64,000 nucleotides of DNA, from contig OZ024764.1 in NCBI GenBank assembly GCA_964016885.1, positions 21,204,001 to 21,268,000 of the forward strand, written 5' to 3'. Position 1 is the stretch's first letter, and the number at the start of each line of letters is the position of its first letter. This document shows positions 12,154 through 52,263 of this stretch, one piece after another. Origin of the DNA: Eledone cirrhosa. Lineage: Eukaryota. A program made the translations under genes and the position numbers. A model generated the notes under the pieces. It was not told the DNA's origin and did not search any database. It was given only the letters and a program-made list of their open reading frames with translations.

Positions 12154-13446
12154 CTAAACTTCTGTATGAATACGCACATTCTTGGTTAAGGTACCATTAT
12201 GAGAGAATGATTTACCACAGATGTCACAGTGACATGGCTTCTCTCCTGTATGAATATGTTTGTGGGTAGCTAAGCTACTGCTGTCAGCGAATGATTTACC
12301 ACAGATGTCACAGTGATATGGCTTCTCTCCTGTATGAGTACGTTTGTGGATAGTTAAGTTACCACTATAAGAGAATGATTTACCACAGATGTGACAGTGA
12401 TATGGCTTCTCTCCTGTATGAGTACGTTTGTGGACAGTTAAGTTACCACTATGAGAGAATGATTTACCACAGATGTCACAGTGATATGGCTTCTCTCCTG
12501 TATGAGTACGTTTGTGGACAGTTAAGTTACCACTATAAGAGAATGATTTACCACAGATGTGACAGTGATATGGCTTCTCTCCTGTATGAGTACGTTTGTG
12601 GGTAGCTAAGCAACTTCTGTCAGCAAATGATTTACCACAGATGTCACAGTGATATGGCTTCTCTCCTGTATGAGTACGTTTGTGGATAGTTAAGTTACCA
12701 CTATGAGAGAATGATTTACCACAGATGTCACAGTGATATGGGTTCTCTCCTGTATGAATACGTTTGTGAGTAGTTAGGTTGTTATATTTAGAGAATGTTT
12801 TACCACAGATGTCACAGTGACATAGTTTCTCTCCTGTATGAATAGCTTTGTGAGTAGTTAGGTGAATACTCTGAGAGAATGAATTACCGCAGATATCACA
12901 GTGATATGGCTTCTCTCCTGTATGAATACGATGGTGTTTAACAAAGTTACTTCTGTCAGAGAATGATTTACCACAGATGTCACAGTGATATGGCTTCTCT
13001 CCTGTATGAATACGATGGTGTTTAACAAAGCTACTTCTGTCAGAGAATGATTTACCACAGATATCACAGTGATATGGTTTCTCTCCTCTATGAATACGTT
13101 TGTGAGTAGTTAGGTGAATACTCTGAGAGAATGATTTACCACAGATATCACAGTGATATAGTTTCTCTCCTGTATGAATACGTTGGTGTTTAGTTAAGCT
13201 ATATCTGCAAGAGAATGATTTACTACAGATGTCACAGTGATGTGGCTTCTCTCCTGTATGAATTTGTTTGTGAACTCTGATGCTACTACTGTGACTGAAT
13301 GATTTGTTCCAGATATCACACTTATAAGGCTTCTTTCCTGTATGAATACGTTTGTGAGTAGTTAGCTGATTACTACGAGAGAATGATTTACCACAGATAT
13401 CACAGTGGAATGGTGATTTTACTATATTTTTCGACATAACTCCCAC
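12154..13446 (-). CDS. C2H2 zinc-finger protein, 15 tandem fingers (finger 2 C>W and finger 15 H>N degenerate), no recognisable effector domain
   Basis: 430-aa ORF of CxxC..HxxxH units with TGEKP linkers. Likely ATG at 13437 (MSKNIVKSP); in-frame TGA just upstream. Splice acceptor at 14255. Confidence 0.93.
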
Positions 13447-14397
13447 TAAAAGATATCAATGACCTCAGTTTCTCACATAATTCACAGTTTTAATATTTTT
13501 CTCCTCTCAGTATATGGATATTTTTCTTCGTTATGTTTATAATATTATTCCTAAAGCATATTCCTCCAGATATATTTACATCAACTTTGGTCTTTCTTTA
13601 TATTTAAAGATGATACAAACTGTTTTGTAGATATCTTCAAGTTTAATATACATATAAAATCATCTTGTACATATTCCAGACAGTGAAGAATCTAATTTTT
13701 CGGGTTTTTATTTGATTAGTTATTCCTGTAATAATGGAAATATTTCTACTCCTGTAGTTCCATCTACTATCAACTTTGTCAATATATGAAGATCTTACAA
13801 AATCATGTGTAAATTTCTTCTGCTTTATTTTGTATCTTCTACATATTCCAGACAGCAAAGAATAGAAGTGTTATTGAGTTTACAAGAAATATTTTCCAGT
13901 AATTCTCCCATAGATTTATATAAACAAGGTTGTATCTGTTCTGTATAACAGCTTCCTTTAGTCTTTAAATAATGGTGTTGATGAAACAACTGATATAAAA
14001 GTGTTTTATCCTTTTCATACCAGTCTTTATATTTATCTAAAAACTTTCCATTGTAACTTCATGAGATTGTGCAAAGTTATGTTCCAAATAGCAGCTTAAT
14101 ACTGAGAAATTCAGTTATATTACTAAATCCCTTCAAAGTGTTGAGTGTTTTCAAAATTATTTGAAAATGATGGGTAGTGTCTTTCATTAGAAATGGTTAA
14201 TGTTGAGGATATGTCTGATGTAACGTGCTCTTTAATGCCAATGTCCTCTGGTATTCTGAAATAATAAAAGAACATTATAAGATACTCAGAAACTTGTAAT
14301 ACATCAGTACAAATTTCATATAATATTTCTATATTGATAAATAGACTGTAATAAATACTAAGGCCTTCCTTGGTGAAGAATGTGCTGCCTAACATAG

Positions 14398-15085
14398 GTT
14401 AGTTATTAGTGGCAGTAGATTATACTGACTGATAAAAGTAGTTATTAGTGACATTAGATTATACTGACTGATAAAAGTAGTTATTAGTGGCAGTAGATTA
14501 AACTGACTGATAAAAGTAGTTATTAGTGACATTAGATTAAACTGACTGATAAAAGTAGTTATTAGTGACATTAGATTATACTGACTGATAACAGTAGTTA
14601 TTAGTGACATTAGATTAAACTGACTGATAAAAGTAGTTATTAGTGACATTAGATTAAACTGACTGATAAAAGTAGTTATTAGTGACATTAGATTATACTG
14701 ACTGATAAAAGTAGTTATTAGTGACATTAGATTAAACTGACTGATAAAAGTAGTTATTAGTGACTTTAGATTATACTGACTGATAAAAGTAGTTATTAGT
14801 GACATTAGATTATACTGACTGATAAAAGTAGTTATTAGTGACATTAGATTATACTGACTGATAAAAGTAGTTATTAGTGACATTAGATTAAACTGACTGA
14901 TAAAAGTAGTTATTAGTGACATTAGATTAAACTGAATGATAAAAGTAGTTATTAGTGACATTAGATTATACTGACTGATAAAAGTAGTTATTAGTGACAT
15001 TAGATTATACTGACTGATAAAAGTAGTTATTAGTGACATTATATTATACTGACTGATAAAAGTAGTTATTAGTGACATCAGATTA
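14398..15085. repeat. 39-bp intronic minisatellite, ~17-18 copies
   Basis: AGTAGTTATTAGTGACATTAGATTATACTGACTGATAAA head-to-tail. About 3.5 copies in C (38013-38155) and about 2.5 in D (52616-52720). Confidence 0.97.
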
Positions 15086-15086
15086 A

Positions 15087-15294
15087 CCCTTTAGTATTCA
15101 CATTACTCTATATTTACTATTACATTATCACAGTAAATGCTTTATCTCTCATAATATCAAATCTATGAGATTTTCATGTTATTTATTTTGAGAACAATAC
15201 CTTAACATAAGTATAAGTGACCAGTTACGGCCAGTTTGAACAGAAAGATGTGGGAGAATTCTGGCCAGATATGGCCAGTTTATATACTAAAGGG
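15087..15294. mobile_element. piggyBac-type MITE
   Basis: TTAA|CCCTTTAGTAT ... ATACTAAAGGG|TTAA. Copies at 38157-38364 and 52721-52928. Confidence 0.85.
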
Positions 15295-50300: not shown

Positions 50301-51193
50301 AATTCACCACAGACTAAACAAGTTCATATCACTTGTATGTAACATCTTTCTGTTGTCTTTAAAAGACTCTTTTCTGTCAAGGTCATGTGATATTCTGAAA
50401 TAGTAGAGAAACATTATTAAGATATTTAGAAAATAGAGATACAACAGTGAAAACTTTACTACATCTCTATATTAATAGATATAAACCTTACATGGTGACA
50501 CAAACACTGCAACACTAACTTACAGGAAAACATCTAGTTACTTGATCTAGTTACTTCAATCAGGTGAAGAGATAAACTAGATTGACTTCATTCTCATCAG
50601 AAAACAGGATAGACAGATGGTTGGGAATATTAACTCCTTTACTGGAGAAGGACGTACCACTCAACATAGACTAGATACTAGGTGTAAGATCTAGAGGGAC
50701 TGACAGATACAAGACTATCTGGAGATAGAAGGGGTGGAGAGTAAAAGATCTCCCTGTTAAATATAAGATCTAGAGGGACTGTGAGAGAGGTACAAGACAA
50801 CCTAGAGAAAAGGGTAGAGACAGTAAAGAATCTCCCTGTTAAATATGATATATAGGGACTGTGAGAGTGTAATAAGACAATCTAGAGGAAAGGGTAGGGA
50901 CAGTAAAAGATCTCCCTGTTAAATATAAGATCTAGAGGGACTGTGAGAGAGGTACAAGACAATCTAGCAAAAGGGGTAAGGACAGTAAAAGATCTCCCTG
51001 TTAAATATAAATTCAGAGATGTTCTACATGATACATATGATAAGGAGGAGGAGATTGATAGCTATGACATAGAAGATATCTGGAAGTTTCTTTCAGGCAG
51101 CCTGTTGTGAACCACTGATGAGATCTGTAGTTGATGTAAGCTGTCAGCCAGATGAATGTTGCCTTGGTGATGGAATAGTACAGTAGATAGAAG

Positions 51194-51600
51194 CCGACCA
51201 TACCCAATTACACCTCTTAAAGGCAATGACACACGTCCGTGACATCTGGCGTCACGCAGTAATACAGAGTACCCGACCTCACACGGGTACGAGCTAAAGC
51301 ATATAGACAATATACCCCCCCCCCCCCTCCCAAGGTCGTCGTGCAGGTGCCACGGCAAAACAGCACCCAGCCCACACTGTAAAGTGAACGTGTAGGCACC
51401 ACGAAAAAGCACCCAGCACTCACTGTAAATGAGGTTGGTGTTAGGAAGGACATCCAGCTTTAGAAATCAAGCCAAATCAGTTCCTGTATGAGCAAGGCAT
51501 GGTCAGCCAACCAGACACTGCCCACAACAGGACAATCCGTCTAACCAATGCTAGCGTGGAAGAACGGACGTAAAACGGTGATGATGATGATGATGATGAT
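51194..51600 (+). mobile_element. RTE-tailed SINE-like retroposon, recent insertion
   Basis: TSD GATAGAAG at 51186-51193 and 51601-51608; long (GAT)n tail; empty site at ~35877 in copy C. Confidence 0.87.
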
Positions 51601-52071
51601 GATAGAAGTTGAAATCTAAAACACCTGAAGAGACAGGAGGGGAACAACAATATCAAATAGTTAAAATGGAAGCTAGATATTAGGCTTACAAGTTATTGAT
51701 TTCTGTTGTTATTGTTAAAATCTGTGATATGTGAGACAATGGACAGGACAATAGAATTAATATCAACGTCAGACTAGCAACAACAAAAGTTTTCATTTTA
51801 TTGGCAGGTTTAAATTACAGAAGTTCCCAAACCTTTACTGAAAATACAAATATATATATCTTACCTGTTAAAGTATAATAAATCAAAGTTTAATGTGAAA
51901 AACTTTAATTTACACAAAATCTTCAAACACTACTTCAAAAATGGAAACCTGGTGTTTATGATCCCTGTCATAGGTAAAACCTACAAGGTTAACCCCAGTT
52001 TTAGCAAGGATGATGGATCTACACAATTGTTGTTGTTGTAGTATGATGTAATGAGTTTGATATTGATACAG

Positions 52072-52263
52072 CTAAACTTCTGTATGAATACGCACATGCT
52101 TGGTTAAGTTACCACTTTGAGAGAATGATTTACCACAGATGTCACAGTGATATGGCTTCTCTCCTGTATGAATACGTTTGTGAGTAGTTAGGTGATTACT
52201 ACGAGAGAATGATTTACCACAGATATCACAGTGGAATGGTGATTTTACTATATTTTTCGACAT
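52072..52263 (-). CDS. Minimal C2H2 zinc-finger ORF, 2 fingers (possible pseudogene)
   Basis: 63 aa with the same N-terminus (MSKNIVKSP) and C-terminus (HVRIHTEV) as the paralogs. About 600 bp of upstream exon is also deleted. Confidence 0.75.

Follow-up and report, generated by a model that had tools for sequence, protein, structure and literature searches.

The 64,000-nt stretch of Eledone cirrhosa DNA analysed here (in the following the window, numbered from its first letter; assembly GCA_964016885.1, contig OZ024764.1, positions 21,204,001 to 21,268,000) harbours three arrays of C2H2 zinc fingers, which were recognized by a six-frame scan, are all encoded on the minus strand (open reading frames (ORFs) A, C and D; Table 1) and were cut into units of 84 nt. 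A preliminary description had reported three paralogs with 15, 9 and 2 fingers, and all 26 fingers were recovered together with their 26 fingerprints (residues -1, 2, 3 and 6): (i) RNQT, HSSV, CYSK, QIHT, DSSK, DSNK, QIHT, KNNT, HGNI, DSCT, YGNV, HGNV, YGNI, DSST and HGTK in A, (ii) QNTD, HSSV, RSHT, LYTT, HNTI, HNHI, QYNT, QYTT and RGTR in C, and (iii) RNHT and QGNK in D. Twenty-four of these 26 fingerprints are distinct, and HSSV is indeed the sole one common to A and C.

The arrays match the C2H2 family PF00096 (E 2e-73 for ORF A, 1.3e-46 for ORF C) and carry TGEKP-type linkers between tandem fingers. No difference exists among A, C and D in the first 9 codons (27 nt), and their C-termini are alike. 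ORF D likely represents an in-register collapse of the array. In A, recent internal duplications are apparent (A4/A7, A5/A6, A9/A11/A12/A13 and A10/A14), and two fingers are broken: the second Cys of A2 is replaced by Trp and the first His of A15 by Asn. Position +6 (12154-13410, 36358-37110) is mostly occupied by Thr, Lys, Ile or Val, with Arg only once in 26 fingers, and Arg is found at -1 in 4 of the 26. By the recognition code, such residues at +6 and -1 would suit AT-rich or weak DNA binding. Protein searches that took C or its start as query were dominated by generic zinc-finger proteins (ZNFs), with a best identity of 62 % among the 120 matches listed and 4 octopus-named matches out of 101 in one such search; a search against 150 representatives gave identities of at most 57 %, and a protein atlas search yielded generic C2H2 clusters only.

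Five tandem units and their flanks

Self-comparison of the window places the approximate boundaries of five tandem units (A-E) at the positions given in Table 1, and a sixth unit starts at 63466. The ZNF gene is kept in units A, C and D and lost in B and E. Each unit contains a hAT/SPIN-like relic (Spin-doc zinc finger in Pfam) and minisatellites, E being devoid of the 71-bp minisatellite. In the tree of units, B and E are sisters (98/96 support), while the branching of A, C and D is an unresolved star, each end branch being near 1.5 %. Pooled flank p-distances amount to 3.5 % (A-C), 3.2 % (A-D) and 3.8 % (C-D), i.e., 96.2-96.9 % identity. The earlier wording that the copies agree almost base for base thus holds for the leader codons and C-termini, whereas the flanks are only about 96.5 % identical and have also changed in structure: the leader of D is shorter by 522 nt, A has about 85 extra nt and is missing about 290 nt downstream, and kb-scale insertions are present as well.

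Table 1. Coordinates of genes, units and transcript features in the window
Feature	Position	Strand	Remarks
ORF A	12154..13437	minus	427 aa; 9-aa leader and 15 C2H2 fingers
ORF C	36358..37137	minus	259 aa; leader equals the 9 aa of A; 9 intact fingers
ORF D	52072..52263	minus	63 aa; 2 fingers, the first and the last
Unit A	1..23154		cut by window start; hAT/SPIN-like relic, minisatellites, RTE-like LINE (long interspersed nuclear element), ZNF gene, reverse-transcriptase relic
Unit B	23155..29343		ZNF gene deleted; breakpoint inside 82-bp variable-number tandem repeat (VNTR)
Unit C	29344..44314		carries ORF C
Unit D	44315..58909		3.4-kb insertion upstream and 300-bp insertion in 3'-UTR (untranslated region) intron
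Unit E	58910..63465		deletion breakpoint same as in B; sister of B, 1.2 % apart
Predicted 5' leader of A	13438..14255	minus	within coding exon; stops in three frames; 14 upstream ATGs
Predicted leader of C	37138..37871	minus	10 upstream ATGs
Predicted leader of D	52264..52474	minus	shortened; 2 upstream ATGs
3'-UTR intron (unit C)	35168..36147	minus	GT-AG, 980 nt; about 210 nt after stop; skipped by one X4 contig
Exon after 3'-UTR intron (unit C)	34850..35167	minus	relic of older ZNF paralogue; acceptor, leader, half finger

Finger turnover and selection at the contact residues

Fingers diverge by about 20 % on average, both within and between arrays, which is some six times the flank distance; DNA identity within arrays is 81 % (84-85 % for interior fingers). 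The first, second and last fingers match their positional partners across copies and may be treated as positional orthologues, A1 and D1 (RNQT/RNHT) being only 1 of 72 nt apart. The view that the fingerprints barely overlap therefore applies to the array interiors and not to the near-identical ends. For each of the 18 interior fingers, the closest finger of another array is 7-14 of 84 nt away, compared to 2.9 expected at flank level, and within the framework considered separately 3-7 of 63 nt differ (2.2 expected). We infer that the interior fingers are mosaics or draws from a pool predating the duplication rather than simple orthologues with new contact residues. The longest exact tracts between fingers (50-82 nt) extend from about +3/+6 to the Lys-Ser-Phe of the next finger, mostly skipping the start of the helix, which would suit an in-register exchange moving helices as cassettes. 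A four-haplotype pattern is present in A9/A11/A12/A13, and one recurrent transition could explain it. Since the repeat unit comprises 84 nt (28 codons), gain or loss of whole units keeps the frame by construction and says nothing on selection; the frame-preserving length changes previously regarded as a sign of it have to be set aside.

Evidence for selection comes from the nucleotide changes themselves. In the positional orthologues, contact codons accumulated 11 changes versus 1.7 expected from the flanks (p 1.5e-6, or 0.007-0.03 when they are scored as 6 or 5 events), and the remaining codons 14 versus 9.4 expected. A codon maximum-likelihood model with fixed site classes on the finger tree (contacts at -1, 2, 3 and 6, other helix sites, framework, zinc ligands) yielded ratios of nonsynonymous to synonymous rates (omega) of 4.3, 1.9, 0.9 and 0.14, respectively. 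Across model variants, contact omega was 4.3-4.6 with a shared synonymous rate (dS; p about 1e-8, main fit p 3e-8) and 3.3-3.8 with a separate dS for the helix (p 3e-4 to 2e-3), while that of the zinc ligands stayed at 0.14-0.17; a higher synonymous rate in the helix received no support in this model (p 0.72). The contact signal persisted with multi-nucleotide changes allowed for, with any one contact site dropped, with interior fingers only and, under shared dS, for A or C alone.

As gene conversion violates tree models (PMC5519329), neutral finger pools with conversion were simulated, the evaluation being time-limited to the first 161 of 487 pools with a flat helix mutation rate, 183 of 453 at a 2.5-fold rate and 168 of 437 at a 4-fold rate. 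None of these 512 simulations (351 with a helix mutation hotspot) reached the observed likelihood-ratio statistic (LRT) of 11.5, and 16 exceeded 3.84. The three ORFs are free of stops and frameshifts, compared with an expectation of about 3.8 (P about 0.02, a rough value that assumes 9 indels in 3345 flank sites and a nonsense share of 4.5 %). The contact residues account for 0.37-0.39 of the amino-acid diversity of these arrays, compared to a median of 0.27 and a 90th percentile of 0.34 in 166 fetched multi-finger proteins. There is statistical support for diversifying selection at the four contact positions, purifying selection being confined to the zinc core. The rapid diversification proposed earlier is borne out by a contact omega of 3.3-4.6 against about 1 in the framework, and by fingers about 20 % apart between flanks differing by about 3.5 %.

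Leader, effector domains and transcripts

Pfam searches agree with the preliminary description in that no KRAB, SCAN, ZAD or SET domain is visible. No match to KRAB, SCAN, BTB, zf-AD or SET was obtained for ORFs A and C (among the best 25 of 26 and of 29 families, respectively), for 7 leader frames or for 74 minus-strand frames of at least 28 aa upstream in unit C. An in-frame stop is located 10 codons upstream of each start ATG in A, C and D. The segment absent from D corresponds to 37185-37706 in C (522 nt), and this deletion cuts the upstream ATGs from 10-14 to 2, so that the two-finger copy might be the best translated one. A 47-residue frame of the A leader shares 20 of 47 residues (43 %) with the N-terminus of an Octopus sinensis ZNF model (pairwise E 2e-10), a match picked by eye among the 4 octopus-named ones of the 101 listed. 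An open frame of 77 codons in the A leader (13828-14058, minus strand) is similar to the beginning of an Octopus sinensis ZNF model. A short motif is present in two copies within the leader and in a third one in the relic exon; a UTR in common or a decayed spacer may account for this. A reading of the leader as a broken octopus effector domain found no support, in that no Pfam family and no usable atlas match emerged and none of 22 candidates scored, although such blanks are weak evidence. The leader is read as family-wide non-coding or long-decayed sequence; a small unannotated coding exon farther upstream may still be joined to the AG that precedes the ATG by 8 nt.

The UTRs and introns formerly described as shared by the three copies are predictions, one of which, an intron in the 3'-UTR, is now backed by one public contig. 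Four public runs (X1, X4, X5 and X17) were aligned to unit C, with 15 of 599 joints listed; among the runs returned by the search for holders of this sequence, none was listed as RNA. The spliced contig, from run X4 (the kind of this run is not on record), uses the donor that had already been picked from the sequence; among the joints listed, the splice joint is absent from X1, X5 and X17, and X4 also has contigs inside this intron. Donor and acceptor are likewise present in A and D, with donors at 36147 (C), about 11943 (A) and about 51864 (D). By the vertebrate rule, a donor this far past the stop would make the transcripts targets of nonsense-mediated decay; the rule is not known for molluscs. 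The leader of the relic exon that follows the intron is 67-76 % alike in two blocks, and such a dead ZNF paralogue lies downstream of the gene position in all five units (10300-10690, 28519-28909, 34783-35170, 50007-50397 and 62644-63031, minus strand). Run X17 matched the fingers only, at about 85-90 %. X1 may be the source sample; its flank contigs (34400-39340) have a depth near 1,400-2,000 compared to 4-9 in X5, without a single-copy baseline, and may hint at many more units in that organism than the five in the window.

Several further elements surround the genes. A frameshifted RTE-like LINE with endonuclease and reverse transcriptase (about 5970-9940) is confined to unit A, the relic of a reverse transcriptase and PHD finger that lies upstream of A (16470-19900) is partly retained in C, and a Tc5/pogo-like relic is located in unit E (59500-61200). 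The gene is flanked by 82-bp and 39-bp VNTRs, which are longest in unit A (10978-11796 and 14400-15085; 10 and 17.6 copies) and reach 3-4 and 2.6-3.9 copies in C and D; unit A thus combines the longest VNTRs with the longest finger array. An Rfam search gave no matches.

Interpretation and comparison with known systems

The locus is probably best explained by young tandem copies of a finger-only C2H2 gene, whose fingers were gained, lost and exchanged under selection for new contact residues. Accordingly arranged, the steps are as follows: a unit of 15-23 kb was duplicated in tandem, leaving A, C and D each about 1.5 % from an unresolved node; the array ends remained orthologous, with replacement of the interior; exchange presumably proceeded via identical tracts of 50-80 nt covering linker and framework but not the helix, so that helices would travel as cassettes from a finger pool that predates the duplication. 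Unequal crossover or gene conversion is the likely route for gain, loss and exchange of the 84-nt repeats. With diversifying selection at -1, 2, 3 and 6, each copy would read different DNA. Units B and E have lost their copy, that of D is collapsed and that of A damaged, in a process of birth-and-death.

A fast-changing DNA target may be the selective agent. Young transposons appear the single most likely target, albeit tentatively, followed by host regulatory DNA. According to the latter possibility, the same mechanism would serve host targets such as neural genes, and only the target step would differ. It is in line with the report that cephalopod C2H2 duplicates are expressed mainly in nervous tissue and in differing co-expression modules (PMC12513265), and also with the failure of the above searches to find a repressor domain; an omega well above 1 over a short time would better suit a moving target, and motifs predicted for octopus ZNFs show an excess in transposon libraries (PMC10547256). 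We regard host targets as conceivable, if somewhat less so than transposons. In case of repression without effector domain, contact to a co-repressor by unrecognized means or plain occlusion are candidate modes of action. One may even speculate on an adaptive cephalopod DNA-recognition system lacking an effector domain, in which a genome-wide finger pool supplies helix cassettes to tandem finger-only genes, new specificities against young transposons are retained by selection, and a co-repressor would bring about silencing by docking on the invariant leader or on finger 2, the latter being proposed as a non-reading docking finger because its contact residues did not change; such a system is improbable.

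Several observations weigh against selection-driven exchange of fingers. Recombination was not detected by a distance-decay test, in which 22 of 105 site pairs were incompatible (p 0.45), so that the exchange is deduced from the structure of the arrays instead of a formal test. With dS estimated from the helix only, the LRT drops to 3.5 for A alone and 4.4 for C alone. Tree-free pairwise ratios were reached by 3-4 % of the flat nulls (p 0.03-0.04) and by 11-19 % of the hotspot nulls, i.e., not significantly, and the simulated pools contained no donors from outside the array. Finger 2 shows no contact changes and 6 elsewhere. Framework omega (0.9-1.2 across variants) and the two zinc-ligand losses, which leave 13 of 15 fingers intact in A, indicate weak constraint outside the zinc core. 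Moreover, both X4 contigs seem to carry the A/D letter at 36152, and the spliced transcript is therefore supported for the family rather than for any named copy.

Some of these points would also fit neutral instability of arrays in redundant, decaying duplicates, with the contact signal inherited from an old pool or from conversion by outside donors. The framework omega of about 1, the broken fingers of A, the loss of the gene from 2 of 5 units and the reduction of D to two fingers would be expected from decay; the 10-14 upstream ATGs in the leaders and the intron after the stop could limit protein output; the helix of C1 resembles that of C5, as a single conversion would give; and hotspot nulls are not excluded by the pairwise tests. 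However, the contact excess is also found in positional orthologues measured against the flanks, the maximum-likelihood test is robust, the zinc ligands are constrained, the ORFs are intact and a spliced joint occurs in X4, which together render purely neutral turnover unlikely. Still less credible is a false duplication, i.e., haplotypes or mis-assembled reads set in tandem. Letters private to C are mostly unseen in the runs aligned, whose contigs carry letters of other units at 17 of the 18 places checked, and no contig spans the stretch, the contigs being short relative to the arrays; but two haplotypes cannot give rise to five units of which three are about equidistant, and about half of the flank differences are transitions. 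In addition, the D-type deletion joint is present in X1, X4 and X5, the last of which bears another organism label and stems from another study, while X1 and X4 contain the A-type insertion; this speaks against an assembly artefact. Selection for new contact residues on exchanging fingers accordingly remains the preferred account.

The pattern was previously likened to both PRDM9 and KRAB-ZFPs. The KRAB-ZFP part of this likeness stands, with respect to turnover and helix-focused change. In mouse KRAB-ZFP clusters, the finger segment is the least conserved part of segmental paralogues, fingers are duplicated and deleted, fingerprints mutated, and copies fixed or decayed (Kauzlaric et al. 2017, PMC5363842); conserved flanks, a diverged finger segment and positive selection at -1, 2, 3 and 6 are shared with the locus described here. 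The KRAB domain, hence a known link to co-repressors, and demonstrated transposon binding are theirs, whereas KRAB was not found here. The PRDM9 part did not hold: turnover of an 84-nt repeat and diversity skewed to contact residues are common to both, but KRAB-SSXRD-SET is not found here and the arrays are weakly homogenised (81 %). The contact share of 0.37-0.39 compares with 0.69 in human and 0.91 in mouse PRDM9, most complete rows having 0.5-1.0 and some 0.33-0.46 (Baker et al. 2017, PMC5519329), although the site set of that study may differ from the residues -1, 2, 3 and 6 used here. A PRDM9-like specifier of recombination hotspots can practically be dismissed: the contact share does exceed the 90th percentile of the 166 proteins and overlaps the lowest complete PRDM9 values, but KRAB, SSXRD and SET are unmatched, within-array identity is 81 %, and the gene is present in multiple tandem copies.

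Cyprinid FiNZ-ZNFs resemble the locus in their lineage-specific expansion and in positive selection at base-contacting residues; they possess a conserved acidic N-terminal domain of 28 aa on its own exon, supplemented by knock-down evidence (PMC10547256), and this domain was not seen here (no search with a FiNZ profile was made). The hemipteran ZF271-like/APEZ proteins have 3-45 fingers and no other domain, form tandem clusters of 4-8 genes with pseudogenes and high turnover, and lack a known co-repressor; within Hemiptera, no correlation with repeat content was reported (Panfilio et al. 2019, PMC6444547). Effector-less invertebrate arrays are thus an already described type. The locus shares with it the finger-only architecture, tandem clustering and gene loss but is not a member, since the hemipteran expansion arose independently in insects.

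The closest affiliation is with the expansion of C2H2-ZNFs in coleoid cephalopods, which is well known (also PMC13218726); for O. bimaculoides, the number of sequences is given as about 1,450 (PMC12513265, PMC9068888, PMC9795677). Clustered multi-finger genes are common to both, the leader matches the Octopus sinensis ZNF model, and clustering by tandem duplication is likewise found here (five units, three with gene). That these proteins might survey transposons is not a new idea: high entropy at base-contacting positions accompanies the predicted motif enrichment in octopus (Wells et al. 2023, PMC10547256), a 2026 review restates the arms-race reading (PMC12988792), and Holzinger et al. 2025 treat transposon surveillance as an open question (PMC12513265). 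The origin of the thousands of cephalopod C2H2 genes, by transposon arms race or neural regulation, is stated to be open (PMC12513265, PMC12988792). In the sources considered, the literature on this expansion covers counts, trees, clusters and expression. A finger-level selection test on young octopus paralogues was not found in the literature searched, which included few subscription papers, and the supplements of PMC10547256 may hold a closer precedent; the present locus adds such a test. It provides a clean internal control, since the neutral flanks differ by 3.5 % and the adjoining arrays by 20 %, and a selection signal at the level of single fingers. A and C, whose long arrays have hardly any fingerprint in common, are well suited to begin binding assays with and to learn how proteins made of fingers alone could work in the absence of KRAB. 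As such, the mode of evolution is already known from zinc-finger clusters of mouse and fish and would not surprise specialists, but the locus is a new and well-resolved case of birth-and-death, finger shuffling and diversifying selection in the cephalopod expansion. It evolves like a KRAB-ZFP cluster, yet is neither KRAB-ZFP nor PRDM9 and belongs to the cephalopod C2H2 expansion.

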